This document shows positions 6,231 through 64,000 of a stretch of 64,000 nucleotides of DNA, piece by piece. The stretch comes from Anaerolineaceae bacterium (GTDB lineage Bacteria; Chloroflexota; Anaerolineae; Anaerolineales; Anaerolineaceae). The translations under genes were made by a program, and so were the position numbers. The DNA lies in contig JBAQLH010000021.1 of assembly GCA_049301715.1 (NCBI GenBank), positions 1 to 64,000 on the forward strand, written 5' to 3'. Numbering within the stretch: position 1 is the stretch's first letter; every line of letters starts with the position of its first letter. The notes under the pieces are model-generated. The model was not told the origin of the DNA. It saw nothing but the letters and a program-made list of their open reading frames with translations, and made no database searches.

Positions 6231-6260
6231 GGGCTGTGGGGAGAGCCCTCCCCACAGCCC
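6231..6260. promoter_or_regulatory. perfect 13-bp inverted repeat (GGGCTGTGGGGAG-N4-CTCCCCACAGCCC), hairpin-capable
   Basis: Read directly. Sits in the divergent intergenic region ~110 nt upstream of tatD (minus strand) and ~180 nt upstream of the plus-strand ORF at 6440. On the minus strand it is followed by a U-rich tract (GGUUUCCCUUUCGCGUUUCUG). Confidence 0.4.
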
Positions 6261-9473: not shown

Positions 9474-9515
9474 CTCTAAACGAAAACATCTGCCCCTGCA
9501 ATCAGGGGCAGATGT
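9474..9515 (-). terminator. rho-independent terminator of the flotillin gene
   Basis: Perfect 12-bp stem CATCTGCCCCTG / CAGGGGCAGATG with loop CAAT. On the minus strand it is followed by UUUUCGUUUAGAGG. Lies immediately downstream of the CDS ending at 9541. Confidence 0.6.
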
Positions 9516-9540
9516 TGCTCATGTACCGGATGTGTTTTCT

Positions 9541-11538
9541 CTATTTTACCGCTGGTGGTGTGCTTTCACCTGAGGGTGTTTCTTTCTTTTCCTTCAAGCT
9601 CTGAAGGATCTCACTGCGCAGTTTTTCGGTATCTTCCCTGCGTTCCTTCGTTGTTCCATCGCTTACTTCCAAATTTAGTTTGTCCGAGAGCAATAGAGTC
9701 AGCAAGCCTTCCATAACGCCGCTGTTAGAGGCACTGCCTGATTCACCTCCACCGACCACCACCCGTGGCACGACATCTACACGGGATTGCTGCACCGCTT
9801 CGGCAAAGCGATTCATCACTTGTTGGGTCACCTGATACTTTGGTCCGCCATAAGCTGCCACCTGTTCTTCGGTAGCGATAGCCTGCGCAATACCGGTGCG
9901 GGCAATTTTTTCAGCTTCAGCATCAGCCAGGGCACGGATCTGGGCGGCCTGCTGCAGGGCACGCATGTAATCTGCCTTTCCCTGGTTAGAAAGCACCGTA
10001 ATACTCAGTTCTGATTCGGTAATATTGCGCTGCTGCTCGGTGCGTGCCTGAGCCTCGCGCAATTCCCGCTCCTTAGCTGCTGCATCCTGCTGGCGCTGGA
10101 AGGTCTCAATTTGTTCTACGGCAATCTGACGTGAACGCAATTGATTGAGGATAATCTCCATGTTTTTATCTTCGCCACTGGTAGTTGGGGTGCCGATCAA
10201 AACCTCCTCCAACTCCAAGTTGTAGTGCTGGAATTTATCTTTCATTTCCTGGCTTGAAATACGCTGAATATCGTTACGCTCCTGGATCAACTGGATCAAT
10301 GTGCGGGTCTGACCAACATTCTTGAAATAAGCGGATACCATTGGGTCCAGAGTCTGCTCGACCAATTTTTTAACATCCCCAAAACGCTGAACCACCAATG
10401 GGGCTTTCTGATAGTCAATATGGATCACTACCGAGAGCGGCAGAGAGGGCTCAAAGGCGTCCTTGGTGATCAGGGAGACTTCTGAGAGGTTCTCATCCAA
10501 ATTGTGCGATCCGACCTCAGATCTGATCCATTTAAGAATGATATTGGTTGTCGGTACTGGCACTACTTTACCTGCATAAGTATTAAAGGCGTACTTGCCA
10601 GGTAAAAGCGGTTCACTCCAGACACCCCGGCTGCCATTGCTTACCAGTTCCCCATGGCGGTAATCACTTCCAGAAAGATCTTCACCGGTTTTACCGGTAT
10701 AAGAGACAACTACCCCCACGAATCCAACCTCAATAATGGTCTTTTGAATCATCTCAACAGTTGCAAATAGCCGGTTGAGGTAATAGGTACCTTCTACCAA
10801 CACCTGCAACTGCCGCCCTCTCAAACCGTTGGCGTTGATAAAGCGGTCGGGCATCTGGAAATTATTGTGATAGGTTAACGGATCACTAAAATCCTCGCCC
10901 ACGACTGGGGCAATGATTTCACCTGAGGGCAGTGAAGGTCCATCATGGACGGTAACAATACCGATTGAGTCGTCCGAGTCTTTGATCACTACTGGCGTGA
11001 AACCCTTGCGGTTGTTGATCACAGTGGTCATACTCTCAATGACCCCTTGATCGTCCTTGCTAAGGGGTAGGTAATAAACACGCTCTTCGGTAATAACCAC
11101 AAACTGCGCCAGGTTGATGGCATAGGTGCCTTCCCGCAGAATCTGGCGTTGTGGACCGCGCTGACCACCATGACTGAGGAAGTGAGTCACATCCTGAAAA
11201 TCATTGGCAGTCGTGTTGGATGCCAAGACTTGCATTGCACTTAAAGGCTCACCATCTCGGGCGAAGATGTAGCCAATTTTACCCTGGGCAATGGTTACCA
11301 GAGGTTCAATGTGGACACGGTATTGAACCGGTATCAGGAAATGCAGACCACCGCGCAAAACATCCGGCTGGTAGCCCGCTTCGCCATGCAAGGCAATAAA
11401 ACCGCCTTTGACCGAACGACGCCCAAAGCGTTTTTCCACAATGCCGATCCGGTTATTGGGAATAAAACGAATCCCTGATAACAGGCTTAGCAGTAAAAGT
11501 ACTGCCACTATGATCAAAATGATAGTACGAGTTTCCAT
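9541..11538 (-). CDS. flotillin-like SPFH/Band-7 membrane protein (YqiK/FloT type)
   Basis: Start taken at ATG 11538 (AGGAG SD) rather than the ORF-track start. N-terminal TM helix, then GIRFIPNNRIGIVEKRFG and the SPFH core. Long Ala/Glu/Gln-rich coiled-coil flotillin region (EAEKIARTGIAQAIATEEQVAAYGG). Confidence 0.7.
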   Translation of the reverse strand: METRTIILIIVAVLLLLSLLSGIRFIPNNRIGIVEKRFGRRSVKGGFIALHGEAGYQPDVLRGGLHFLIPVQYRVHIEPLVTIAQGKIGYIFARDGEPLSAMQVLASNTTANDFQDVTHFLSHGGQRGPQRQILREGTYAINLAQFVVITEERVYYLPLSKDDQGVIESMTTVINNRKGFTPVVIKDSDDSIGIVTVHDGPSLPSGEIIAPVVGEDFSDPLTYHNNFQMPDRFINANGLRGRQLQVLVEGTYYLNRLFATVEMIQKTIIEVGFVGVVVSYTGKTGEDLSGSDYRHGELVSNGSRGVWSEPLLPGKYAFNTYAGKVVPVPTTNIILKWIRSEVGSHNLDENLSEVSLITKDAFEPSLPLSVVIHIDYQKAPLVVQRFGDVKKLVEQTLDPMVSAYFKNVGQTRTLIQLIQERNDIQRISSQEMKDKFQHYNLELEEVLIGTPTTSGEDKNMEIILNQLRSRQIAVEQIETFQRQQDAAAKERELREAQARTEQQRNITESELSITVLSNQGKADYMRALQQAAQIRALADAEAEKIARTGIAQAIATEEQVAAYGGPKYQVTQQVMNRFAEAVQQSRVDVVPRVVVGGGESGSASNSGVMEGLLTLLLSDKLNLEVSDGTTKERREDTEKLRSEILQSLKEKKETPSGESTPPAVK

Positions 11539-11786
11539 ATATTCTCCTTTGATTTTTTGAAGGGAAACTATGAATAAGTATACTCTCACCAATGGCTTAG
11601 ATACAATAGATAATATAGGCTTTCCTGGGTAGAAAAAATATTTTGGGCTATTTTGTGGAGAAAAAGGTGTAAGTGAATCATAAATATCTTCCGTAATGAG
11701 GATGACTAACATATGAAGATTAGCCGACGTTAAGCAAACGGGACTGTTTGACTTGAACAAGCCCTTGTGATACACTCCTGCCAATC

Positions 11787-11893
11787 TACTCATCCAGAGA
11801 GGTGGAGGGACCGGCCCAATGAAACCTCGGCAACCTGCAACTAAGGTAGGTGCCAATTCCGGCAGAATTAAGCCAAATTCTGGAAGATGAGGC
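11787..11893 (+). promoter_or_regulatory. SAM-I riboswitch (S-box leader) aptamer
   Basis: The S-box core is read directly: P1 CTCATCC...GGAAGATGAG enclosing AGAGAGGTGGAGGGACCGGCCCAATGAAACCTCGGCAACC...GTGCCAATTCCGGCAGA. Lies ~75 nt upstream of metH. Confidence 0.8.
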
Positions 11894-11911
11894 AAAACTT
11901 GCAACAGCAAT

Positions 11912-11967: not shown

Positions 11968-14900
11968 ATGCAAAAACAACCCCTCATCAAGAAAACGGCC
12001 TACCTGGAGGCTCTTAACCAGCGTGTCCTAATTTTTGACGGCGCTATGGGCACCAATCTGCAAGCCATGAACCTGACCGAAGTTGATTTTGGTGGCAAGC
12101 AGTTGGTAGGCTGCAACGACTGTTTGGTTCTCTCCTCTCCCGAAAGTGTTGCCAAAGTGCACCGCTCCTTTATGGAAGCCGGCGCAGACGTGCTCGAAAC
12201 CGACACCTTTCGTGCCAACCGTCTGACTCTGGCAGACTATGGTATGGCTGACCGCACAATCGAACTGAACCGGAAAGCTGCCCGATTGGCGCGCGGAGTG
12301 GCAGATATCTACAGCACCCCCGATAAACCGCGCTTTGTTGCCGGCTCAATCGGACCTTCCGGCAAGCTGATCTCCACTGATGACCCGCAGATGTCTGATA
12401 TCACCTTTGACGAATTGGCAGATGTCTTCCGCGAGCAAGCCAGCGGGCTGATCCAGGGAGGGGTGGATTTGCTGCTGATAGAAACTCAGCAAGATATTCT
12501 GGAGGTTAAAGCCATCGTGGAAGGCATTCGGCAGGCTTTCCAAGAAGAGGGTATGATACTGCCCATTCAGGCCCAGGTTACCCTGGATGTGAATGGCAAA
12601 ATGCTGCTAGGCACGGAAATCTCGGCTGCTCTCGCTATCCTGGACGGATTGGGTGTAGACGTGGTTGGTTTAAACTGCTCCACCGGGCCCGAACACATGC
12701 GCGCTTCAATCGAGTACCTGAGTGAACATAGCAACATACCCATTTCGTGTATTCCCAATGCCGGTTTGCCAATGAACGTCAATGGCGAAGCGGTTTATCC
12801 CATGCAGCCCGAGCCTTTCTCTGATCTCCTTTCGGACTACGTCAGTAAATATGGCGTGCGGGTAGTCGGGGGTTGCTGCGGCACCACTCCCGAGCACATC
12901 CGCAATCTGGCGGCAAAGATTGGGGAGGTGCGCGCAGCCCCACTCAATGCTGTACCTCAGGCAGCGCTGGCTTCACCTGTGCAGGCTGTTCCGGTCGAAC
13001 AGGAACCCGTTCCTTTCCTGATCGGAGAGCGCCTCAACGCCCAGGGATCGCGGGCTTTCAAAAAGCTTCTTCTGGCTGAGGACTTTGACGGCATGCTTCA
13101 GATCGCGCGGGACCAGGTGGAAACTGGTGCGCACGGTCTGGACGTGAGTGTGGCAGTGACTGAACGTACAGACGAGCTTGAAATGATGACCAAGCTGGTC
13201 AAACGGCTTTCATTAGAAGTGCCAGTGCCACTGATCATTGATACCACCGAACCGGATGTGGTTGAATCGGCTCTGAAAACTTTCCCCGGGCGTTGTCTGA
13301 TCAACTCCACCAACCTGGAATCAGGAGAAATCAAACCTCGCAGGATTTTTTCGTTAGTAAAAAAATATAGTTCGATGGTATTAATGCTGACAATCGATGA
13401 AGCTGGCATGGCCAAGACGGCTGAACGCAAGCTGGAAATTGCCCAGCGTTTGTACCGCCTGGCGGTGGACGAATTCGCGCTAAGACCGCAGGACCTGATA
13501 TTTGACGACTTGACCTTTACCTTGGCAACCGGCGAGGAAGTCTACCGCAGTTCCGCCATTGAGACTCTCCGGGGTTTGACCCTGATCAAGCAGCATCTTC
13601 CCGGTGTGCACACCTCGCTGGGTATCAGCAATGTTTCTTTTGGGCTTTCACCTGCCTCCCGCAAGGTAGTCAACAGTGTTTTCCTATACCACGCTGTCAA
13701 AGCCGGCTTGGATATGGCTATCGTTAACCCAGCCCAGATCAAACCCTATGCTGAAATTCCGGAAAACGAACGCGCTCTGGCTGAAGCACTGATCTTCAAC
13801 CGCAATGAAAAAGCTCTGGCTGATCTGATTGCTTACTTTGATGCCAACCCGGAAACTGGTAGTGAGGAGCCAGGGAAAGCCTCTCCTTTTGATGGCTTAA
13901 ATCCCAGGGAAAGGCTCAAAGCCCGCATTTTATTGCGGCAAAAGGTCGGGGTGGAACAGGATGTCGATGACATTCTAACCCTTGATCCTGACCTTCCAGC
14001 CAGCGAGAAAGCTGTCGCACTCTTGAACGAAGTGCTTTTGCCTGCCATGAAGGAGGTTGGCGATAAATTCGGTGCCGGAGAACTGATCTTGCCCTTTGTA
14101 CTACAGTCGGCTGAAGTGATGAAAAAAGCAGTGGCTTACCTGGAAAATTACCTCGAAAAGAAGGAAAATCCCAGCAAGGGAAAACTTGTTCTGGCTACCG
14201 TATATGGAGATGTGCACGATATCGGTAAAAACCTGGTCAAGACGATCCTTTCCAACAACGGTTATGAGGTGATTGACCTGGGCAAGCAGGTGCCAGCCGA
14301 GACCATAATTCAGGCTGCTATCGATGAAAATGCCACGGCAATCGGATTGAGCGCCTTGTTGGTTTCTACGAGCAAACAGATGCCTTTGATTGTCAACGAA
14401 TTACAGCGCCGCAAGCTCAATTTCCCGGTCCTGATCGGAGGAGCTGCCATCAATCCCCGTTTTGGATGGCGCATTTTCAAGAGTGAGGATGGTAGTTTCT
14501 ATGAACCGGGCGTTTTTTACTGCAAGGATGCCTTTGAAGGCTTGGCAGTTATGGACGCCCTGGCAGACCCCGCCAAGCGCCAGACTTTACTGGTAGACAC
14601 CCGCCGGAAGGCAGAATACGAATTTGCTGCTCCCCATGCCCACATAGAGAAAGGCAGTGCTTCCGCTCGACCCGCTTCATTAGCACCGGCCGGGTTCATC
14701 CCTTCCATAAAACAATGGGGGCCGCGTGTTGTTGAAAATATGCCCCTGCAGTTGGTGGCAAAACATCTCAACCTTAATGAACTTTACCGACTTTCCTGGG
14801 GAGCCAAGAACACCCACGGTGAGGAATGGCAAAAATTGCAGGCTGAGTTTGACCAGCGCAGAATAGACATGCTGGCAAAGGCAGAAAAAGAAGGCTGGCT

Positions 14901-15489
14901 CAAGCCCAGGGCAGTGTATGGCTACTGGCCGGCTTTGGCAGATGGCAACAGCCTTCTGGTTTTCGATCCGAAGACTTTAAACGACAACAATCCCAAAGTG
15001 CTGGAGCGTTTTGAATTCCCTCGGCAAGCAGGAGGGGAGGGATTGTGTTTGGCAGATTACTTCCTGCCGGTCGGTTCGAATGAATTTGACCTGGTAGCTT
15101 TCCAGGTGGCAACAGTAGGGGCGGAAGCCACCCAGCGCTTTTCCGAGCTGGAACAAAAGGATGCCTATTCCCAAGCATATTACCAGCACGGTCTTTCGGT
15201 GCAGATGGCAGAGGCGACCGCTGATTACCTTCACGACCATATTCGCCAGGAGTTGGGTTTGCTGCGAGGGCAGGGCTTGCGTTATTCCTGGGGCTACCCG
15301 GCCATACCGGAATTGTCAGACCATCGCAAAATCTTTAACCTTTTGCCGGCCGAATCCGCCCTGGGAATGAGCCTAACGTCAGCTTATCAACTGGTTCCGG
15401 AGCAGTCAACGGCCGCGATTATTATCCATCATCCTGCAGCCAAGTATTTTAATGTCGGAGTGAACCGCTTGGAGCAGCTGCTAAATTAA
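11968..15489 (+). CDS. metH: cobalamin-dependent methionine synthase, full length
   Basis: 1173 aa with GAGGTG SD. Homocysteine-binding domain (DGAMGT...GGCCGTTPEHI). Pterin-binding domain. B12-binding domain (GDVHDIGKN). C-terminal AdoMet reactivation domain. Confidence 0.9.
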   Translation: MQKQPLIKKTAYLEALNQRVLIFDGAMGTNLQAMNLTEVDFGGKQLVGCNDCLVLSSPESVAKVHRSFMEAGADVLETDTFRANRLTLADYGMADRTIELNRKAARLARGVADIYSTPDKPRFVAGSIGPSGKLISTDDPQMSDITFDELADVFREQASGLIQGGVDLLLIETQQDILEVKAIVEGIRQAFQEEGMILPIQAQVTLDVNGKMLLGTEISAALAILDGLGVDVVGLNCSTGPEHMRASIEYLSEHSNIPISCIPNAGLPMNVNGEAVYPMQPEPFSDLLSDYVSKYGVRVVGGCCGTTPEHIRNLAAKIGEVRAAPLNAVPQAALASPVQAVPVEQEPVPFLIGERLNAQGSRAFKKLLLAEDFDGMLQIARDQVETGAHGLDVSVAVTERTDELEMMTKLVKRLSLEVPVPLIIDTTEPDVVESALKTFPGRCLINSTNLESGEIKPRRIFSLVKKYSSMVLMLTIDEAGMAKTAERKLEIAQRLYRLAVDEFALRPQDLIFDDLTFTLATGEEVYRSSAIETLRGLTLIKQHLPGVHTSLGISNVSFGLSPASRKVVNSVFLYHAVKAGLDMAIVNPAQIKPYAEIPENERALAEALIFNRNEKALADLIAYFDANPETGSEEPGKASPFDGLNPRERLKARILLRQKVGVEQDVDDILTLDPDLPASEKAVALLNEVLLPAMKEVGDKFGAGELILPFVLQSAEVMKKAVAYLENYLEKKENPSKGKLVLATVYGDVHDIGKNLVKTILSNNGYEVIDLGKQVPAETIIQAAIDENATAIGLSALLVSTSKQMPLIVNELQRRKLNFPVLIGGAAINPRFGWRIFKSEDGSFYEPGVFYCKDAFEGLAVMDALADPAKRQTLLVDTRRKAEYEFAAPHAHIEKGSASARPASLAPAGFIPSIKQWGPRVVENMPLQLVAKHLNLNELYRLSWGAKNTHGEEWQKLQAEFDQRRIDMLAKAEKEGWLKPRAVYGYWPALADGNSLLVFDPKTLNDNNPKVLERFEFPRQAGGEGLCLADYFLPVGSNEFDLVAFQVATVGAEATQRFSELEQKDAYSQAYYQHGLSVQMAEATADYLHDHIRQELGLLRGQGLRYSWGYPAIPELSDHRKIFNLLPAESALGMSLTSAYQLVPEQSTAAIIIHHPAAKYFNVGVNRLEQLLN

Positions 15490-15511
15490 TTGGAAATATG
15501 TGAGGTCTACA

Positions 15512-17371
15512 ATGAGCAACAAATTCTTGGATCGGCTTGATCAGGATCCCAAACCCTTGGTGGCAGATGGTGCCATGGGCACCCTTCTGCACGAACGGGG
15601 AGTTGAGTTCGATACCAGTTTTGACTTCCTTAATATTCAGAACCCGGCCATAGTGGCAGAGATCCACGGTGAATATATCCAAGCCGGGGCGGAAATGATC
15701 AAGACCAATACTTTCAGCGCCAACCGAATCAAACTAAGCCGCTACAAGATGGAACAAAGCGTCCAGGAAATCAATCGCAAAGCGGTGCAGTTGGCAAGAC
15801 AGGTAGTCGAAGGTTCCTTCAAAGACGTTATGATTGCCGGTGATATTGGCCCATTAGGCGTCCCTTTGGCGCCCTTTGGCAGGGTTCAGCCGGAGGAAGC
15901 CCGCGAAATCTATCGGGAGCAGATGACAGCCCTGGCTAAAGAAGGGGTAGACCTGCTGTTGATTGAAACTTTTTCTGACCTTTACCTGCTGCGCGAAGCC
16001 ATCACAGCCGCCCGCGAAGTAGATCCGACCTTGCCTGTGATTGCCTCTATGACCTTCACCCGGGACAAGCGCACTCTACTTGGGGATGACCCGGTGAAAG
16101 TCGCCAATGCACTGGTAGAATACGGCGCAGATGTGATCGGGGTAAACTGTTCGGGGGGGCCAGTGCAGTTGCTGAATATCATCAAAATCATGCATGCTGC
16201 CCAGCCTAACGCCCGCATCTCGGTCATGCCAAATGCTGGCTTCCCGGAACAAGTCGGCGGGCGTATTATGTACCCAGCCGGACCAGCGTATTTCCGCGAT
16301 TTTGCCATTTCCTTCTGGAAAGCCGGTGCACGCGTGATTGGCGGCTGCTGCGGTACAACACCTAAACATATTGCCGTGATCAGCGAAACTATCCAATCCG
16401 CCAATGTGGAACAAATCCAACATGAAGTATCAATCCAGGAAAAACAGCCTTTAGAAGTTCAAGTTACCGAAGGCGACACCTCCAAACTGCAGGAAAAATT
16501 GGCAGCAGGAAAGTTTGTAAAAGCCGTAGAGATTGACCCGCCCAGGGGATTTTCTACCCACAAACTGATGGCGGGGGCAAGTCTGCTGGCAGATGCCGGG
16601 GCAGATGTGATTGATGTGGCAGATAGCCCCATGGCGCGTATGCGTATGAGCCCATGGGGGGTGTGTCAGTTAATCCAATCCCAGCTTAAGGTCGAAACCA
16701 CTCTACACTTTCCCACTCGCGGGCGCAACCTGCTGAGAGTTCAGGGAGATTTACTGGCAGCGCATGCCCTGGGAATCCGCAATGTGTTTGTCATCATGGG
16801 CGACCCCACTGCCATTGGGGACTATCCCGATGCCATGGATAATTATGACCTGGTTCCTTCCGGTTTGATCAAACTGATCAAACAGGGCTTGAACGCCGGA
16901 TTCGACCATGCAGGCGGCAAGATTGGTCAGCCGACCTCCTTTTTTGTGGGCGGAGCAGTAGACCTGGCTTCTGAAAACCTGGAACGCGAGGTAAAACTGG
17001 TGCACAAGAAAGTGGAAGCCGGAGTAGATTTCTTGTTGAGCCAGCCAGTCTTTGAGCCAGTCAAAATCAGCGAATTTCATAAAGCCTATGAAAAAGAATA
17101 TGGGACGTTTGACCTGCCCATCCTGGTCGGAATTCTGCCGCTGGCATCTGACAGGCATGCCCGTTTCCTGCATAACGAAGTGCCGGGGATCAGCATCCCC
17201 GAAACCATTCAAATCAGGATGGAAAAGGCAAGCGACCAGGGAGCACAGCAAGGCGTGCTTATTGCCAGGACTTTAATTGAAGAAATCCGCCCGCTGGCAC
17301 AGGGAGTCTACTTCATGCCTCAGTTCAGCCGTTACGACCTGGTTGCTGAGATCATCGCTGAGATGCAGTAA
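15512..17371 (+). CDS. yitJ: bifunctional homocysteine S-methyltransferase / 5,10-methylenetetrahydrofolate reductase (YitJ-like)
   Basis: ATG at 15512 with GTGAGGT SD; the ORF-track start at 15500 is a GTG. N-terminal HMT domain (DGAMGT...GGCCGTTPKHI) fused to a C-terminal MTHFR domain. Second gene of the S-box operon. Confidence 0.85.
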   Translation: MSNKFLDRLDQDPKPLVADGAMGTLLHERGVEFDTSFDFLNIQNPAIVAEIHGEYIQAGAEMIKTNTFSANRIKLSRYKMEQSVQEINRKAVQLARQVVEGSFKDVMIAGDIGPLGVPLAPFGRVQPEEAREIYREQMTALAKEGVDLLLIETFSDLYLLREAITAAREVDPTLPVIASMTFTRDKRTLLGDDPVKVANALVEYGADVIGVNCSGGPVQLLNIIKIMHAAQPNARISVMPNAGFPEQVGGRIMYPAGPAYFRDFAISFWKAGARVIGGCCGTTPKHIAVISETIQSANVEQIQHEVSIQEKQPLEVQVTEGDTSKLQEKLAAGKFVKAVEIDPPRGFSTHKLMAGASLLADAGADVIDVADSPMARMRMSPWGVCQLIQSQLKVETTLHFPTRGRNLLRVQGDLLAAHALGIRNVFVIMGDPTAIGDYPDAMDNYDLVPSGLIKLIKQGLNAGFDHAGGKIGQPTSFFVGGAVDLASENLEREVKLVHKKVEAGVDFLLSQPVFEPVKISEFHKAYEKEYGTFDLPILVGILPLASDRHARFLHNEVPGISIPETIQIRMEKASDQGAQQGVLIARTLIEEIRPLAQGVYFMPQFSRYDLVAEIIAEMQ

Positions 17372-32418: not shown

Positions 32419-32549
32419 TGGTTCCTCACTTTAATTCATAAAGCAAAGGCTGCGTTGATCGAGATACGTCAACCTGCTTTATCCTTATATTGGCTTTTTT
32501 GTTCTCAAAGTCAGAGAAACTTGAATCTAATTATATTCCTGATTGCATC

Positions 32550-32640
32550 GTTGGGTTTCGAGCGAAACCCAAGAGGATCGGATTGCCTTTTGTAACCGCT
32601 CAACACCAACCTATAGAGTCTGGCAGGTTGAGTCAAGCGG
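32550..32640 (+). repeat. copy A of a conserved intergenic element (GTTGGGTTTCG...AAGAGGATCGG...TTTGT..CCGCTCAACACCAACCTATAG + closing GTTGAG..GCGG)
   Basis: Read directly. Shares ordered blocks with copies at 53465-53665 (+), 45968-46136 and 61283-61349 (-). Lies between the rpoD 3' end and the ATL start. Confidence 0.5.
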
Positions 32641-32732
32641 AGAATCGCAAAGATTATTATGGTTGGATTTGCCCGCTCAACCCGTCCTGCTATCAATATG
32701 CGCGCTATCCCTGCCTGATTCCTCTGCCATAA

Positions 32733-45833: not shown

Positions 45834-45967
45834 GGGAAGGATTATACCGCACCTGAAAGGGGAAACTGTTTGGACGCATTGCCTCACAATTAATCTTGCT
45901 ATCGAAACATCCGATACCTCAAGATTGACCTTACCAATACGCATGAGGAGTATCGCAAAGCCCGGCA

Positions 45968-46136
45968 TAGGTTGGGTTGAGCAAATAAGGATGGCACTTG
46001 TGATTTCCTCCAGTCAGGCGAAACCAAACAAACACCCAGTCGAGGATACCCCTTGAACCCTCATACGATGTTGGGTTTCGGGCAAAGCATCTCTTTTCAC
46101 GAAGCCATATCCCGTCCTCAACCCAAACTTGTATGA
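45968..46136. repeat. copy C (diverged, with inverted 3' block) of the conserved intergenic element
   Basis: ATAGGTTGGGTTGAGC (45968-45983) is the reverse complement of the 3' block. GTTGGGTTTCG lies at 46070-46080. CGTCCTCAACCCAAACTTGTATGA lies at 46113-46136. Confidence 0.4.
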
Positions 46137-46592
46137 TAAAAGCTGGCTTAACATCACATGGCGGGGCGCGACCTCTACTATCTGGATATTTACAGCTCCG
46201 GATAGATCTGGTTATAGGCTTACGCCTGCTCCAATCGCCAACGTAAAGCAGAAGTCTTCCCGGCTTGCCATATACGTTCAGGGCCATAACAATTTGATCG
46301 GTTAGAGCAATTTTGTATGCTTAGGAAAGAGAACTCTGGAGAGAATTCCATGAGTCTATTTGACCATTTTCCCGTTATTTGCATAGCGCTTTTTACAATA
46401 TGTCTGTCTTTTGTAAATTACTTGGTATTACTCTTCTTTTCAGATGGTTTTATCCTCATTCCATTTTCACAAAGCACTGCCTTCACATCAGGGAAAAACC
46501 AATGACCTCCCAGCCCTGCTTGTACGGAATTAATTCTTTTCTTATACCCTTCGATTATTATGGGTATAATACCGATTGAGGAGTACTGCTTT

Positions 46593-47669
46593 ATGTCAAC
46601 TTTTGTGGTTATCTTGCAATTCGTGTTTGTTTTCGGGTTGTTAATCTTTTTTCATGAGCTTGGTCATTTCCTGGCTTCAAAGGCTTTGGGTATAGAAATC
46701 GAAGAGTTCGGTTTTGGCTATCCGCCCCGCCTGGTCAAACTTTTTACCTGGAAAGGCACTGAGGTAACGCTTAACTGGATCCCCTTCGGCGGCTTTGTCC
46801 GGCCCAAAGGGGAAGGCGATGAAAATGTCGAAGGAGGCATGTCCGCTGCCCCAGCCTGGAAGCGTTTGATCATTCTGCTTTCTGGTCCCACGATGAACTT
46901 TATCGTCGGCATTATCGTCCTGATCGTGATGTATGCTGCTGTCGGCACTCCCGTTTCAAACCAGGTCTTGATCACTGATATCGCCCCCAACTCACCCGCC
47001 CAAACCAGCAATTTACAAATTGGGGATGTCATCACCGGCATCAACAAAAAAGAGCTGACTGATATCGACCAAATGCAAACCTTGATCCAGGAAAATCTGG
47101 GCAAAGAAATCAGTCTGACCGTATCGAGGGATGATGAGACCTTGATTGTAGAGCTTACTCCACGCCTCAATCCGCCTGAAGGCGAAGGTTCCGTTGGGAT
47201 TTGGTATACCAACGCTTACGAACCCATGCCCTTTACTAATGCACTTGGTTCTGCTTTCGACACCTTTGGTTACCAGGCAAAGGAAACACTCATGCTGCCG
47301 ATCAACCTGATCAATGGCTCTGTCTCCGGGGAGGAAGCCCGTGTGATTGGTCTTAAGGGCATTTTTGATATCTTCAGCAACGCCAGCGAGATGGATGCAA
47401 GCGGCCCAGTGGCTGCCGCCACACCGTTACCCATCTATCGGCTTTCGGTGATTTCTACCGTTTCAATTGCACTTGGGCTGACCAACCTTTTGCCTATCCC
47501 TGCCCTGGATGGCGGTCAAATCTTTTTAATGCTGCCAGAATTGTTTTTCAAGAAGCGCATTCCTCAGAGTGTACTGAATACAATTAACTCGGTGTTTTTC
47601 TTCCTGTTAATCCTCCTGATGGTCTATATTAATGTGCAAGACTTTGTAAACCCTATTCTCCAGCCTTGA
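46593..47669 (+). CDS. rseP: RIP site-2 zinc metalloprotease (M50 family)
   Basis: ATG at 46593 with GAGGAG SD and a TATAAT just upstream. HELGH zinc motif in TM1. PDZ domain. C-terminal LDGG motif. Confidence 0.85.
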   Translation: MSTFVVILQFVFVFGLLIFFHELGHFLASKALGIEIEEFGFGYPPRLVKLFTWKGTEVTLNWIPFGGFVRPKGEGDENVEGGMSAAPAWKRLIILLSGPTMNFIVGIIVLIVMYAAVGTPVSNQVLITDIAPNSPAQTSNLQIGDVITGINKKELTDIDQMQTLIQENLGKEISLTVSRDDETLIVELTPRLNPPEGEGSVGIWYTNAYEPMPFTNALGSAFDTFGYQAKETLMLPINLINGSVSGEEARVIGLKGIFDIFSNASEMDASGPVAAATPLPIYRLSVISTVSIALGLTNLLPIPALDGGQIFLMLPELFFKKRIPQSVLNTINSVFFFLLILLMVYINVQDFVNPILQP

Positions 47670-53168: not shown

Positions 53169-53464
53169 TTCTGCAAAATGCAAGTAACAGGGCAAACTGA
53201 ATCCCGGGTGGCCCTGTTTTAATTTATAGTGGTAATTAATGGGGGAATATAAGCATTTAAGTGTTGTGTACCTGTATTCAAGAAATCCTGGTCAGCATCC
53301 GACCTAAAGGTCATACCTAGAACTCTCGCAGCAATTGATCAACGATCTCTGGTCCAGATGGGTTGGTGTTAAGTGGGTAAGGAAGACCAGAAAGCCCTGT
53401 ATTGACCCCCAGCAAAACCCAAAATATTGTCAGGCAAATTTCACGGTTTGATCCTGACAGAAAT

Positions 53465-53665
53465 AAGAGAGGATCGAATAAAAGAAGTTCGCTAACGACA
53501 GTCTGCATTGAGGCGTCGGGTTTCGCTGAAGATAATGAATTTTGGAAGGCTGCTGAAACCTGAAAGTGTCTACTTATAATGGGTACAGTTTGTGGGGTTT
53601 GACAGGGGGCAAGCCCCGCTCAACACCAACCTATAGTGTCCTGAACAGATTGACCTTGAGCGGGT
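53465..53665 (+). repeat. copy B (expanded) of the conserved intergenic element, candidate sRNA 5' domain
   Basis: AAGAGAGGATCGAAT at 53465. GTCGGGTTTCG at 53515. TTTGTGG at 53589. CCCCGCTCAACACCAACCTATAGTGTC at 53614-53640, closed by TTGAGCGGG at 53655-53663. A strong terminator lies 45 nt downstream. Confidence 0.5.
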
Positions 53666-56491: not shown

Positions 56492-56917
56492 GCAACCTCC
56501 CGGGAATAATCGATGATAGTTAATTTTACCCGAAACCTGTCTGTTATTTGGAGATATTAGTATTTCCCGAATAAAGTCACTAATTCACTTCCCAAAGTCA
56601 TGTCATAAGCATCCAGACCTGGTTGGCAGGTACTCTTTATGAATGTTTTCCTGGTTGTCCTCCTAAACAAGTCGGTTTTTCTAATTATCCTTTTCTCAGA
56701 GGGCAGCACTCGCTCAATGCTGCCTGAAAGCATATTGCTGCCAACTCTTCATCGACTTCCGTAATATCTGATGTAAATGGCAGCAGCCTACCTCCACCTA
56801 ACAAGCCAGTTTCTAAAGTTATCCACCCTGTTTGGTATGCTAATTGCAGTTTACGTTTGAAGGTATACTTATATAAATATTAGCAAAGCGCTTAAACCTT
56901 TTTGACTAAACAAACGA

Positions 56918-59555: not shown

Positions 59556-59819
59556 TCCATGACTGATCTCTTGTTAGTAGCTCCTCCAAATTTAGCTTAG
59601 TCTGGTTGTCCTATGGAGTTTTTCGTCGATTTCACCAACGCCTCGCTTGGGATGCCGTCGGAACCTACAAGTTTAATGATTCTGCTAAAGATAACTATCT
59701 CCAACAGATGTCCCGGTGACTGGTTACAACTCGCTAAAATCCTAGAGGGTCGTTCAGGATATCATCCCTGGGTTTCGCCCGAAAATGTCTCATCTCATTT
59801 AAAGAGGGAGCATATTATT

Positions 59820-61032
59820 CTACTGAAAAGGAAACGGCATCTTGCAAAGCAGGGTTTCCTGATCATTAGTCATCATATTATTGATTAAACTCCAAACAAC
59901 GAATCCATTCCCTAGTTCAGCGTTTCCTACCCCTCTATCTCCGTCCCCAGGATCATAAATATAAATTTTACGATTCATGACATCGGTAATAGAAAATGTA
60001 AGTGAATTTTTGCCGTGAAGATTAATAATCGTTTGATAGTAAGGGTATTGGTTGAATAATTTGACATCCGAATTAGGCGTGCCAATGAACGGCAAAGAAT
60101 ATGTTTCATGTGATTCAATGTTATAAAAAGTAAGCTTTTGCGGGTTATCAAATCTTAAGTTGTTTTTCCAAACTAAATAGGGGTAATTCAACTGAGGCAT
60201 AGACCCTGGAGCAAAATAGGGTATCTGCTCGAAATGTTGTGATTCTAAGTTCAGAAGTGCTATGTCAATTAACTCAGGCTTGTCTATGTCGTTTGGATCC
60301 CGTTCGATAACAAGATACCGGTTCGAAGCCTGGATGATTGTGTCCAATAGACAATTCCATTTTCAGCCGACACATAGAAATTTAACAGGCTTGTATTTGA
60401 TTTATCACGGTTAGTGACTTCTATCTGATTTCCGTTGGTTATGTTTAAGGCAAGCAATTGCCAATAGCCGTCTGGATTTCCTGTGGGGTTATTTGTATCC
60501 ATGAAAACTAACCAGTTATTTGTCAGATGCATCGGAAAGATATTCAGGAAGCCTTGTTCAAATTGAGATTTATAAATTAACTCTTTTTCCCCAAATTCGA
60601 ATGGCATTTTATATAAATTCATTGGTTCCGTCATAAGTACAAAATAGATGTTCTTCTCATCCAATATGATTCTGCCAATCCTAGTCTTCCCTAAATTCGT
60701 GCAATATTTGGTCTCTTGTTCGACGGGGAGATCAAAAAAAACTTCGATAATTCATCCTCTGTTAGTATTCTTGCTGTCATTTCAGAAACTTCAGTGGTGA
60801 CCGGAAGTACAGTTGCAACGGATGTTTCCTTTGGTGTTACGGCACTAGGCATTTCAATTGCAGACGAAAGTGCTGTTTCTGTTAGATTGGTATTCGAGCT
60901 TAACACATCGGATGTTTTTTTTAGCTGTGGGGTGTTCGTCGGTTTTAGTGCTCCTGGCTGACAGCCGGTTAAAATCGTCATCAGAATACAAATAGATAAT
61001 ACTATTTGAACTTTGGAAAATAATTTCATCAA
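59820..61032 (-). pseudogene. lipoprotein gene disrupted by two frameshifts, in an AT-rich patch
   Basis: Three consecutive minus-strand ORFs in three different frames (60691-61032, 60284-60664, 59820-60347). The first has a lipoprotein signal (ILMTILTGC). The second and third begin with TTG and abut or overlap the preceding one. The sequence reads continuously across both junctions (…ENGIVYW / DTIIQASNRYLV…). Local GC is well below the window average. Confidence 0.45.
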
Positions 61033-61282
61033 AACCTCCGAAATACTCAGCTATCCTCCAAATATAGAGGATGGCTAAGTGCAGTCAATTAACTATTACC
61101 ATGCCTGAGCATTATTTTGACTAACCCGATACCACAGCCAAAACAAATCTACTTTATTAAAGTACGCTCCAGTATACCCTGCTGTTGTTGAGGAAGGCAA
61201 GATGTAATCCTTCGGTCAACACCCGCGCTCGGCACTTCCAAGGGCTTCGCACTCAGACCGGTGCGAACGGAGAAATCGGGTT

Positions 61283-61349
61283 TTATAGGTTGGCGTTGAG
61301 CGATTACCACAAATAAACCGATCCTCTTAGGTCTGAAGCGAAACCCAAC
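61283..61349 (-). repeat. copy E of the conserved intergenic element (minus orientation)
   Basis: The reverse complement reads GTTGGGTTTCGCTTCAGACCTAAGAGGATCGGTTTATTTGTGGTAATCGCTCAACGCCAACCTATAAAAC, nearly block-for-block identical to copy A. Confidence 0.5.
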
Positions 61350-61666
61350 ATGGCAGATAGAGACTTACAATCAGGCAAGGGGGTTCACAACCTTCCGCAT
61401 GACAGAAGAAACATAGAAAACATACCACCAAAGCCCATGCTCGGTCCGGAGACCGTCCTGAAACAAGTATTTATTCCGGCTTATTTCCGACTAACTTTTT
61501 TTATGGTTCAACAACCAATAATCAATCATCAGCAACATTAAACCTTTCTAAACCTCTAACTTGATAACGTTATAATTCGACCTCTCCAGGGCTCTGTTTG
61601 TGATTATAATTATTGGTTGCACATCAATAATAGAACAAATGATTGAATTATTAACCAGGATACCTT

Positions 61667-64000
61667 ATGCCAAATGAAAACCTGCGCGTGGTCGGTGCGC
61701 GTGAACATAATCTTAAAAACATTACCGTCGAAATCCCCCGGGATAAGCTGGTTGTACTGACCGGTTTGTCAGGTTCCGGCAAGTCCTCGCTGGCTTTCGA
61801 TACCATCTTTGCCGAAGGGCAACGCCGCTATGTCGAATCCCTCTCCTCTTATGCCCGTCAGTTCCTCGGCCAGATGGACAAACCGGATGTGGATTCCATT
61901 GAAGGGCTTTCCCCGGCGGTTTCGATTGACCAGAAAGCCACCACACACAACCCACGCTCCACGGTTGGCACGGTCACCGAGATATATGATTATCTCAGGC
62001 TGCTCTTTGCCCGGATTGGCGTTCCGCACTGCCCGATTTGCGGCCGCGTGGTCCAGCGCCAGTCCGCCCAGGAAATCGTTGAGACGATCGAAGCCTTGCC
62101 GGCGGGCAGCCGCCTGCTGATCCTGGCTCCAGTCGTCAGGGAACGAAAAGGCACCTACCAAGCAGTCTTCAGCGAGATCAGCAAGTCTGGCTTCCTGCGC
62201 GTAAGGGTCGATGGTGAAGTGCACAACCTGGACGAAGACATCCCGTTGGACCGCTACAAAAAGCACACCATCGAAGCAGTCGTGGACCGGGTTGTGCTCT
62301 CTCATCCCGAGGCAGAAGATGAAATTCAGGCTGCCCGTTCGCGCCTGACTGACTCAATTGAAACAGCACTCAAGTTCGGGGAGGGTTATGTGACCGTCCA
62401 AAACCTCAGCCTGAACCCTGCTGAGGATATCCAATTCTCGGAAAACCTGGCATGTCCTGAACACGGCTCCATCCTGATTGAGATCGAACCGCGCACCTTC
62501 TCCTTCAACACCCCCCACGGCGCTTGTCCAACCTGCCAGGGGCTGGGCAGCCGGCAAGAGATTGATCCCGACTTGCTTATCCCGGATAAATCCCTTTCCT
62601 TGCGAGAGGGTGCCATCGCTGCCATGGAATGGTCTGGTCCCCGCGAAGACGGCGGATACTACTGGCAGATGATTGAAGCTGTTGCCAAAAACAACCATTT
62701 TGAGCTGGACACTCCGGTCAGTGAATTGGAAAATGAACAACTTCGCCAGATCCTCTATGGCAGCAATGGGCATGAGATTAAGGTGGAATTTACCGGCAGG
62801 AATGGCCGTAAGAGTTCCTTCACTACCACCTTTGAGGGTGTCATCGGCAATATGGAACGCCGCTACCGCGAAACCCAGTCCGAATATATCCGGACGAAAA
62901 TTGCCGAGTTCATGGGGGTTAAACCTTGCCCGACCTGCGGAGGCAAGCGCCTGCGGAAAGAAGCTCTGGCCGTCACCGTGGCAGATAAAAACATAATCGA
63001 AGTCACCGAGTGGCCAGTTAACCGCACGCTTGAATGGGTTGACCAGCTTTCTTCTGAAGGAATACTCAATTCCCGCCAGACGGCTATTTCCGAACGCATT
63101 CTTAAAGAAATTAAGTCCCGGCTCAGCTTTTTGGTGGATGTTGGCTTGGATTATCTCACTCTCCAGCGCTCCGCCAGCACCCTCTCAGGCGGCGAAGCCC
63201 AGCGCATCCGCCTGGCAACGCAGGTGGGTTCCCGGTTGATGGGTGTGCTATACGTTTTGGACGAACCCTCGATCGGCCTGCACCCGCGCGACAACCGCCG
63301 GCTGCTGAATACCCTCGAAGGTCTGCGCGACCTGGGCAATACCGTCCTGGTGGTCGAGCATGATGATGAGACCATCCGCACTGCTGACTGGGTGATTGAT
63401 CTTGGCCCCGGGGCTGGTGAACACGGCGGAGAAATCGTGGCCGAAGGCACCCCCGAGCAAATCCAGGCAGACCCCCAATCAATCACCGGCGCGTACCTCT
63501 CGGGCCGCATGCGCGTCCCGTTGCCGGAAAAACGCCGCCAAGGCAATGGTAAATCTATACGCATCGTTGGTGCTACTGAAAACAACCTGAAACACCTTTC
63601 TGTGGATATCCCGCTGGGCAAGTTTGTCTGCATTACCGGAGTCTCCGGTTCCGGCAAGTCCACCTTGTTGGTGGATGTGCTCTACAACTCGCTGGCGCGG
63701 CAGTTGCACGGCGCCCATACCCAGGCAGGCGCGCATGAGCGCATCGAAGGCACACAATACCTGGACAAAATTATCAATATCGACCAATCCCCCATTGGCC
63801 GCACGCCTCGCTCCAACCCAGCCACCTATACCGGCATCTTCGATGACATTCGTGACCTGTTCACCGAGCTGCCCGACTCTAAAATGCGTGGTTACAAAAA
63901 AGGTCGCTTTTCCTTCAACATCAAGGGCGGGCGCTGTGAAGCCTGCCAGGGTCAGGGGCAGTTAAAAATCGAGATGCAGTTTATGCCGGATGTGTATGTG
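61667..64000 (+). CDS. uvrA: excinuclease ABC subunit A (5' ~778 codons; continues beyond the window)
   Basis: Missing from the ORF track because it has no stop in the window. The frame is open from ATG 61667 to 64000. N-terminus [55 protein letters not shown]. Second ABC module ([10 protein letters not shown]). Ends ...[12 protein letters not shown], matching the UvrA C-terminal Zn-finger region. Confidence 0.9.

Follow-up and report, generated by a model that had tools for sequence, protein, structure and literature searches.

Tagged hairpin repeats between the genes of an Anaerolineaceae bacterium are probably mobile elements of the REP/REPIN type

Results

Seven repeat units lie in four intergenic spacers

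The 64-kb stretch of DNA analysed here (hereafter the window) is core chromosome, which the names of its RpoD and SodA homologues assign to Anaerolineaceae. Four of its intergenic spacers carry a short recurrent element: the spacer from the end of rpoD to the start of an ogt-like gene, that between a divergent pair of dinG-like and rseP genes (the RseP-like protein encoded by the ORF at 46560-47669 has no exact match on record), that between convergent PNPOx-like and sodA genes, and that ahead of uvrA, a gene that starts near 61666 and runs off the end of the window. Seven units were found in total, and at two of the loci they form inverted, head-to-head doublets. As the sequence-only reading had stated, no copy falls inside a CDS: every unit is intergenic, in a window of which 12.7% is intergenic DNA.

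Unit A (32550..32616, plus strand) is composed of GTTGGGTTTCG at 32550-32560, a 37-nt interior and a 3' arm with its tag, GCTCAACACCAACCTATAG, at 32598-32616. Tail-to-tail with it lies a truncated inverted 3' arm, AGGTTGAGTCAAGCGG (32625..32640, minus), which pairs with the 3' arm of A (DNA fold z = -3.29), followed by a degenerate compact unit, A2 (GGTTGGATTTGCCCGCTCAACCCGTCC, 32661..32690, plus), which is conserved in the related locus L016 and to which the second CCCGCTCAACC previously noted at 32672 belongs. Unit E (61283..61349, minus; GTTGGGTTTCG, a 37-nt interior and GCTCAACGCCAACCTATAA) is located about 317 nt upstream of uvrA and is divergent from it. A (32550-32616, plus) and E (61349-61283, minus) form one subfamily: their alignment spans exactly 67 nt, running from GTTGGG to CCTATA(G/A), the similarity begins and ends exactly at the arms and the flanking DNA is unrelated. 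The 10-nt segment in which they differ is as earlier described.

The other two loci are more complex. Between dinG and rseP, unit C1 (45966..46029, minus; GTTTGGTTTCG, a 36-nt interior and GCTCAACCCAACCTATG) is the left half of a doublet whose right half, C2 (46070..46135, plus), reads GTTGGGTTTCG ... CCTCAACCCAAACTTGTATG, the two being separated by a 40-nt spacer (46030-46069). This region had been taken for one diverged copy at 45968-46136; it is indeed repeat sequence, but it consists of two inverted units. C1 lies about 132 nt upstream of the dinG-like start, which comparison with the related locus L032 places near 45834, so that the long ORF reaching into C1 is an artefact. Between the PNPOx-like gene and sodA, a degenerate unit overlooked so far, B' (53357..53423, minus; TTTGGGTTTTG ... 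CTTAACACCAACCCATC), stands head-to-head with B (53515..53636, plus; GTCGGGTTTCG, a 92-nt interior and GCTCAACACCAACCTATAG) at a distance of 91 nt. A truncated inverted 3' arm, AGATTGACCTTGAGCGGG (53647..53664, minus), pairs with the 3' arm of B (z = -3.10) and is kept in L032 with a G.T wobble. B is a genuine unit with extra DNA, but it does not share the block order once ascribed to it because AGAGGATCGA, which resembles AAGAGGATCGG, sits upstream of the 5' block, outside the unit, and depends on a 7-nt indel missing from the relative.

The recurrence of the two terminal blocks, GTTGGGTTTCG at the 5' end and GCTCAAC(N)CCAACCTA at the 3' end, is real and far above chance: with at most one mismatch, GTTGGGTTTCG occurs seven times in the window for 1.3 expected, and the 20-mer CGCTCAACACCAACCTATAG occurs three times (32597, plus; 53617, plus; 61283, minus) for none expected. 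Two further proposed matches are at chance level, namely AAGAGGATCGG, which is found in A and E only, and a fragment near 56529, a 9-mer located in conserved flanking sequence. The additional units (B', the split of C1 from C2, and A2) emerged from a less stringent search and from subfamily profiles; nhmmer with five subfamily profiles recovered zero further copies in the window, and no unit was found in its first 32 kb. None of the nearby terminator sites (a G+C-rich hairpin followed by a T-run) overlaps a unit: those at 32761-32738 (minus) and 53741-53708 (minus), which had been attributed to A and B, terminate the convergent rpoD and sodA genes, a terminator-like site at 53304-53290 also lies outside every unit, and the one proposed for E could not be found.

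The units share a bulged stem and an external tag

Within each unit, GTTGGGTT pairs with AAC(N)CCAAC to form a stem of 8 bp that a single bulged purine divides into 5+3. The 3' arm is then followed by an unpaired CTA(T/C), which the opposite strand reads as an (A/G)TAG tag; on that strand the whole unit is (A/G)TAG-GTTGG(N)GTTGAGC ... CGAAACCCAAC. In every intact unit the tag directly adjoins the stem, and units A, B, E and C1 of the window all carry ATAG. Of the 224 stem cells in 28 units, 202 are Watson-Crick pairs (the others being 11 G.T, 5 A.C and 6 other combinations). When the 22 distinct stem variants are considered, 91.5% of cells pair and compensatory double changes are found in four of the eight stem pairs. 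These measures were reached by only 2-10 of 500 shuffles, and pairing fell to 19-57% in slid registers. That the family is a structured repeat, as first proposed, is thus borne out: the recurrent blocks are the arms of a conserved hairpin with compensatory stem changes.

The interiors behave differently from the arms. They are wholly different between subfamilies and show no excess structure (mean fold z = -0.01, n = 14, against shuffles in which the ends were kept), and whole-unit folds have weak z-scores. Interior length is nonetheless bimodal, 3-5 nt or 35-41 nt, with the exception of the 92 nt of B in the window; the B interior measures 35 nt in the relative, about 56 nt being extra in the window. 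We take the fixed length of otherwise freely varying interiors to be inherited from a long-loop ancestor, with selection at each round of copying acting on the ends only; under descent, substitutions saturate and indels stay rare. A CRISPR-like origin of the interior of about 37 nt was considered and rejected, as identical interiors recur at different loci (A/E and C1/D1, see below), as was a tRNA-derived SINE: ARAGORN finds no tRNA in the window, and the interiors, which would include the T-arm, carry no conserved sequence. In A and B the hairpins that close on CCGCTCAA/TTGAGCGG do exist (DNA-fold z -3.3 and -3.1), but instead of presenting ACCAACCUAUAG in a loop they are better read as the pairing of a 3' arm with a second, inverted and truncated 3' arm in a tail-to-tail REP arrangement.

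In close relatives the units drift, and a doublet has been copied

Syntenic DNA was available from L016 and L017 (RpoD 93% identical) and from L032 (GCA_053578215.1), which is about 92% identical to window positions 43160-64000. Relatives carry A, B', B, C1 and E at orthologous positions, and these insertions are thus old. A has an orthologue, A1', in the same flank of L016, where the 21 nt upstream of A are also identical; on the opposite strand this 21-mer contains a perfect TATAAT facing the ogt-like gene. B' has orthologues in L032 to L034. C1 has one in L032, C2 being missing from that site, and the L032 orthologue of E, E', is 82% identical, has a decayed 3' arm and reads CGCTCAAA-CTAACC. 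Orthologous units are about 82-83% identical (74% for A), the intergenic flank of E, the sole flank measured, is 82% identical and gene-dominated blocks are 90-94% identical. Substitutions fall inside the supposedly conserved arms of the orthologues. The units thus drift like their flank, arms included, and individual copies give no sign of purifying selection.

L032 contains six units in 20.6 kb, including a doublet, D1/D2, located between an MFS transporter gene and an LPG-synthase gene. It is a paralogue of C1/C2: over about 160 nt, spacer included, the two doublets are about 80% identical at non-orthologous loci, and neither related flanks nor a target duplication were found when D was compared with C. 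The presence of a C-type doublet at different loci in two genomes indicates that the inverted doublet is the copied unit.

Structural differences between the close relatives concentrate at the units: all five synteny breaks over these 20 kb affect units or the spacers that contain them, and four of the five occur at a unit or within about 30 nt of one. (i), at C, L032 differs by a segment of about 465 nt, which comprises the spacer, C2 and a hydrophobic ORF of 52 aa and is bordered by a direct repeat of the 5' end of C1. (ii), at B, L032 differs by a 56-nt indel in the unit interior. (iii), at E, a 1.7-kb segment with hypothetical ORFs starts about 28 nt from the tag in the comparison with L032. 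(iv), at A, the single unit of the window corresponds in L016 to two direct units spaced 270 nt apart. At the fifth break, the whole spacer between the MFS transporter and LPG-synthase genes is replaced; the L032 doublet lies there and the window has none.

Related units occur in cyanobacteria and proteobacteria

A genome scan with the 3' arm recovered units in which both arms are directly adjacent, tGTTGGGTTTCGCTTCGCTCAACRCCAACCTATA, in Nodosilinea, a Leptolyngbyaceae MAG, Vacuolonema, a Nitrosomonadales MAG and a Moraxella MAG. These compact units are 28-31 nt long and often stand beside a second unit of the form cGTAG-GTTGGGT-N13-ACCCAAC-a. In Nodosilinea and Leptolyngbyaceae they sit in an element of about 150 nt bounded by inverted CCTGATTGACTGACAAAA, which makes a different mobiliser possible in Leptolyngbya-like cyanobacteria. 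A metagenome scan for the two arms, with a gap of 20-50 nt allowed, found seven true units on six contigs; their gaps were all 35-41 nt, their interiors were unrelated and the tag was GTAG in six of the seven. One of these contigs (L028), from a Leptolyngbya/Adonisia-type cyanobacterium, pairs a long unit and a compact one head-to-head, and there the tag provides a stop codon. Two scans of viral contigs for both arms gave 0 hits, and the element is thus not phage-borne. A BLAST search of plasmids with a cyanobacterial doublet matched only two Kovacikia minuta plasmid records and Pseudoalteromonas, all without useful annotation, and a literature search for the literal sequences matched only primers.

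Discussion

We consider it likely that the units are copies of a REP/REPIN-type repeat, that is, a non-coding, hairpin-forming and non-autonomous mobile DNA element. This reading is supported by several features: (i), a tetranucleotide of the GT[AG]G type, with A in place of the first G in the window, lies at the 0-2 nt distance 5' of the hairpin that is typical of REPs; (ii), the stem of 8 bp plus a bulge falls within the REP range (about 6-13 bp, PMC3733652, or at least 7 bp with an optional bulge of 1-3 nt, PMC6006769); (iii), the head-to-head doublets have spacers of 91 nt (B'/B) and 40 nt (C1/C2), within the 20-100 nt of REP doublets and, (iv), single units (A/E) as well as doublets (C/D) have been copied to unrelated intergenic sites without visible target duplication.

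The kind of repeat is itself a known one. Di Nocera et al. described a GTAG-tagged REP superfamily in Proteobacteria, Cyanobacteria and Chloroflexi, among others, with stems of 6-13 bp and loops that are mostly short, up to 27 nt; these REPs are extragenic and RAYT-associated and preferentially form head-to-head dimers 20-100 bp apart (PMC3733652). Closer in format are the long REPs with GT[AG]G tags that flank RAYTs of subclasses 2.4, 2.7 and 2.8, which Quentin et al. found in cyanobacteria and scattered other phyla (PMC6006769). For instance, a Cyanothece REP of 60 nt consists of GTAG, GGGCGGGTTT, a 36-nt loop and AAACCCGCCC, with a 10-bp stem, another Cyanothece REP, of 64 nt, is ATAG-tagged and has a 37-nt loop, and Arthrospira REPs measure 58 nt (PMC6006769 Table S1). 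The REPs of these cyanobacterial REPtrons (subclass 2.4; Cyanothece ACU99956.1, Arthrospira BAI88150.1) resemble the window units in carrying GTAG or ATAG directly 5' of the hairpin, in the long, poorly paired loop (36-37 nt in Cyanothece) and in overall format, with total lengths of 58-64 nt. They differ in having a basal stem of 9-12 bp, against 8 bp plus a bulge in the window, in its sequence (GGGCGGGTTT or GGGCAGGTTT versus GTTGG(N)GTT) and in flanking a RAYT gene, whereas none was located at the window units. The Anaerolineaceae units are thus probably long-loop REPs of the GTAG/ATAG type, a kind already known in cyanobacteria and proteobacteria.

The sequence of tag and stem points to other REPs. 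GTAGGTTGGATTAGCCGAAGGCGTAATCCGAC of P. stutzeri A1501 (RAYT subclass 2.2) and GTAGGGGTTGGGAAACCCAACCC of Cyanothece (subclass 2.4) (PMC6006769 Table S1) are near-identical in tag and stem start, GTAG-GTTGG, with a loop GC..GAAG..GC, and the former is close to the compact unit read on the opposite strand, TAGGTTGGCGTTGAGCGAAGCGAAACCCAAC. Both are compact (23-32 nt) and fully palindromic, whereas the window units have a 1-nt bulge and interiors of 36-92 nt, and their hosts belong to other phyla than that of the window. As to the doublets, REPINs are inverted pairs of REPs that act as the replicating entity (PMC3116915, PMC3337134). In P. fluorescens SBW25, as in the window, two inverted REPs and a short spacer replicate in extragenic DNA, singletons are decayed remnants and a doublet is found at different loci in related genomes (PMC3116915, PMC3337134), but a REPIN half measures about 25 nt as against 64-122 nt here, where visible copies are also far fewer. 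The bulge and the long interior thus distinguish our units from the compact REPs, and the size of each half from the SBW25 REPINs. The E. coli REP reads GTAG-GCCGGAT...ATCCGGC-A. Together with TnpA_REP, the REP/BIME system of this bacterium has the same format as the window units (GTAG, an arm of 7-8 nt, a variable middle, the complementary arm and A, as PMC3733652 describes for REPs) and forms mixed-orientation clusters as here, but the sequences are unrelated and its loops are short.

By analogy with these systems we infer that the units depend on a RAYT and spread through a single-strand mechanism. The mobile unit is an imperfect palindrome with an unpaired tetranucleotide tag outside the stem and a loop of inherited length and free sequence, present singly or as an inverted head-to-head doublet with the tags outside, the doublet being what gets copied. 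A single-copy HUH/Y1 RAYT (TnpA_REP) encoded elsewhere would recognise tag and hairpin on single-stranded DNA and, by cutting and joining a single strand, would spread copies to intergenic DNA without target duplications. After insertion the copies decay neutrally, and the repeats and hairpins would seed deletions, duplications and insertions. Effects on neighbouring transcripts, such as stabilisation of 3' ends or barriers to read-through, would be secondary. Neither the 64-kb window nor about 300 kb of related loci yielded a RAYT or Y1 transposase gene: tblastn with approximate RAYT and IS608 TnpA queries against the window and related DNA returned nothing, Pfam scans of the window ORFs showed no transposase or integrase, and Pfam revealed no transposase among the ORFs beside the units of the Nodosilinea and Nitrosomonadales loci.

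Besides the lack of a RAYT hit, the gene whose link to the repeat defines REPs, in the DNA searched, and the larger element around the compact units of Leptolyngbya-like cyanobacteria, three observations argue against a REP/REPIN assignment. The visible copies amount to only seven in 64 kb, all in the second half of the window. The window tag is ATAG and not GTAG, and the first G of GTAG is usually the most conserved tag position. Finally, a stem sequence common to several phyla is unusual for REPIN-RAYT systems, which are described as mostly vertically inherited (bioRxiv 10.1101/2022.05.22.493013).

Among the alternatives, we regard it as unlikely that the units belong to a conventional MITE, derived by deletion from an IS that encodes a DDE transposase; in such an element the doublet ends would serve as terminal inverted repeats and generate target-site duplications. 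The doublets, of about 160-280 nt with inverted ends of about 16-20 nt, have suitable dimensions, the compact units of Nodosilinea and Leptolyngbyaceae do reside in a larger element with inverted CCTGATTGACTGACAAAA ends, and the 8-mer CCTGATTG also precedes A and E. However, terminal inverted repeats flanked by a target-site duplication were not found: there is no direct duplication around the C or D doublets, A or E, although decay could hide short ones, and CCTGATTG has no inverted partner near A. In addition, the window holds no transposase gene, single units with sharp boundaries (A and E) also appear to have been copied, and the asymmetry of a tag on a hairpin fits the Y1/REP format.

The concentration of structural differences at or beside units, with a doublet in L032 that the window lacks at the fifth, is the basis for a bolder proposal, which we hold to be quite improbable: rather than passive selfish repeats alone, the units may be working recombination points of a system for exchanging small segments in Anaerolineaceae, at which a RAYT-like enzyme cuts at tag and hairpin and thereby inserts short segments with ORFs into core-genome spacers or removes them, in a REP lineage that would have crossed between Cyanobacteria, Proteobacteria and Chloroflexota. 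Indels arising through recombination or slippage at repeats and hairpins are known REP behaviour (PMC3733652).

The sequence-only reading had proposed an unannotated small-RNA family as one possibility. That the units are genes for small regulatory RNAs, whose transcription would begin shortly before GTTGGG and which would display the 3' block and act in trans or in cis, we judge very unlikely. It is true that G.T is commoner than A.C in the stem on the strand originally read (11 versus 5), that compensatory changes maintain stem pairing, that 21 nt upstream of A are identical in L016 and that transcription, with a possible role as RNA elements, is noted for many REPs (PMC3733652). Yet the TATAAT within that 21-mer faces the ogt-like gene from the opposite strand, the units have neither a promoter nor a terminator of their own, the hairpins with T-tracts being those of rpoD and sodA, and their orientation with respect to neighbouring genes is inconsistent. 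The interiors are unstructured and unrelated between subfamilies, and orthologues drift at a neutral rate, with mutations inside the blocks. In agreement with the earlier statement that no known RNA family could be recognised, Rfam 15, searched at gathering and permissive thresholds, did not match A even at E<=10, returned just noise for B and nothing for eight related loci. The family was correctly spotted and is real, but it was over-interpreted. A mobile repeat in place of an RNA gene, an outcome which that reading had itself envisaged, is essentially what the data show, with no target-site duplication seen.

Still less probable are site-specific recombination sites that would bound small exchangeable segments in an attC-like manner. 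The distribution of the synteny breaks, including the spacer replaced at the L032 doublet, would suit such sites, as would the variable ORF-bearing segments between or beside direct units (270 nt in L016, about 465 nt at C and 1.7 kb at E). Like integron attC sites, which act as folded single strands, the units have imperfect inverted ends with GTTRRRY- and RYYYAAC-like heptamers, a variable centre and an extrahelical, bulged base. However, attC sites have RYYYAAC on the 5' side, GTTRRRY on the 3' side and an integrase nearby, whereas the units start with GTTGGGT and end in ...CCAAC, which is the opposite GTT/AAC polarity, and they are dispersed in core-genome spacers of a window in whose ORFs we found neither an integrase or other recombinase gene nor a cassette array. 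The earlier view that these are not attC sites thus holds. Moreover, only three such events were seen, and homologous recombination or slippage between repeats and hairpins explains the indels equally well. Finally, operator-like protein-binding sites regulating DNA-repair genes are extremely improbable: although three of the four loci lie upstream of repair genes (ogt-like, dinG-like and uvrA) and the arms are dyad-symmetric, the units keep neither a constant distance nor a constant orientation to the genes, none stands upstream of uvrB, the L032 doublet lies between transporter and LPG-synthase genes, the units decay in orthologues, the family spans phyla and many gene contexts, and the window contains no Gram-positive-type LexA box (GAAC-N4-GTTC).

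The REP/REPIN assignment removes the units as a false lead for a new small-RNA family and extends the host range of long GTAG/ATAG-tagged REPs to an Anaerolineaceae genome. For annotation, the units flag indel hot spots in otherwise syntenic core regions, and they can create spurious ORFs and start or stop codons, as illustrated by the long ORF over C1, which starts inside the unit. Beyond this genome, TAG-GTTGG...CCAAC is common to REPs of cyanobacteria, beta- and gamma-proteobacteria and Chloroflexota, and this sharing of tag and stem across phyla bears on whether inheritance of REP-RAYT systems is strictly vertical.

Promoter-like elements at units A and B

Some 110 nt ahead of the ogt-like gene, the minus strand carries a perfect TATAAT (32530-32535), which lies inside a 21-nt stretch (32525-32545, ctaattatattcctgattgca) that is the same at all 21 nt in the window and in its syntenic relative L016, in surroundings of about 78% identity. 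This hexamer is probably the -10 element of the ogt-like gene, in which case the -35 region would fall in unit A (32550-32616, +), a copy of the REP/REPIN-type hairpin repeat. The octamer CCTGATTG, with only 5 occurrences in the window, lies 4 nt ahead of A (32538-32545) and 18 nt ahead of unit E (61375-61368, minus strand). At the L016 counterpart of A (~11500-11235, minus strand), where the window has this single unit, about 270 nt separate two direct units, A1' and A2'; the segment holds a possible 19-aa ORF (MFRLTGVICYFEEYKQRGLK), preceded by GGGGAGG.

A promoter-like match, CTGAAA-16-TATAAT (10/12), occurs at 53553-53580 (+) in the interior of unit B, within about 56 nt that are missing from a second syntenic relative, L032. 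The AAGAGGATCG that the sequence-only reading had reported in B comes from a 7-nt AGAGGAT indel at ~53470.

Segments of the window at the C and E loci

At the C locus, about 465 nt (46030-46486) are specific to the window and are bordered by a direct repeat of ~20 nt of the 5' end of unit C1 (46009-46029 and 46484-46506). An ORF at 46341-46502 (+), preceded by a GGAGAG motif, may encode a 52-aa hydrophobic peptide (MSLFDHFPVICIALFTICLSF...), and a Pfam search with it gave no match. Near E, a 1.7-kb segment (59557-61254), whose start is ~28 nt away from this unit's tag end, is missing from L032 and replaced there by 34 nt. It holds three or four ORFs (59613-59888, +; 59820-60347, -; 60284-60664, -; 60691-61032, -), also without a Pfam match. 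Further on lies uvrA (61666-64000, +), incomplete and missing from the ORF-tool listing because the gene runs past the window end. Three minus-strand ORFs (61769-62305, 62354-62773 and 63151-63663) were rejected as genes, being antisense artefacts within uvrA with no Pfam match.

Features of the first 18 kb

A SAM (S-box) riboswitch (11787-11893, +; 89 bits) directly precedes a 1173-aa ORF (11968-15489), followed by an ORF with homocysteine S-methyltransferase and MTHFR domains (15500-17371). The long minus-strand ORF at 9541-11910 overlaps the riboswitch and its true start must therefore be further downstream. Two near-perfect intergenic palindromes of 30-32 nt (6231-6260 and 9485-9516), detected as self-inverted BLAST matches, are probable terminators, unrelated to the REP family.

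REP units in cyanobacteria

In Leptolyngbya-like cyanobacteria (loci L007, L004/L012, L010 and L013), a REP pair is enclosed in an element of ~150 nt whose ends, CCTGATTGACTGACAAAA...TTTTGTCAGTCAATCAGG, are inverted, and this element looks like a MITE carrying REPs. The 2.5-kb contig SLQN01000221.1, binned as a Rhodobacteraceae MAG, is identical to Nodosilinea sp. P-1105 over the ~240 nt shown (L004 vs L012) and is probably a mis-binned cyanobacterial contig. The ORF at 1-669 of L028, a contig from a Leptolyngbya/Adonisia-type cyanobacterium, appears queC-like from a reading of its C-terminus and terminates at a TAG supplied by the downstream REP tag (660-669). This stop codon within the tag gives an example of how such repeats can overlap gene ends.
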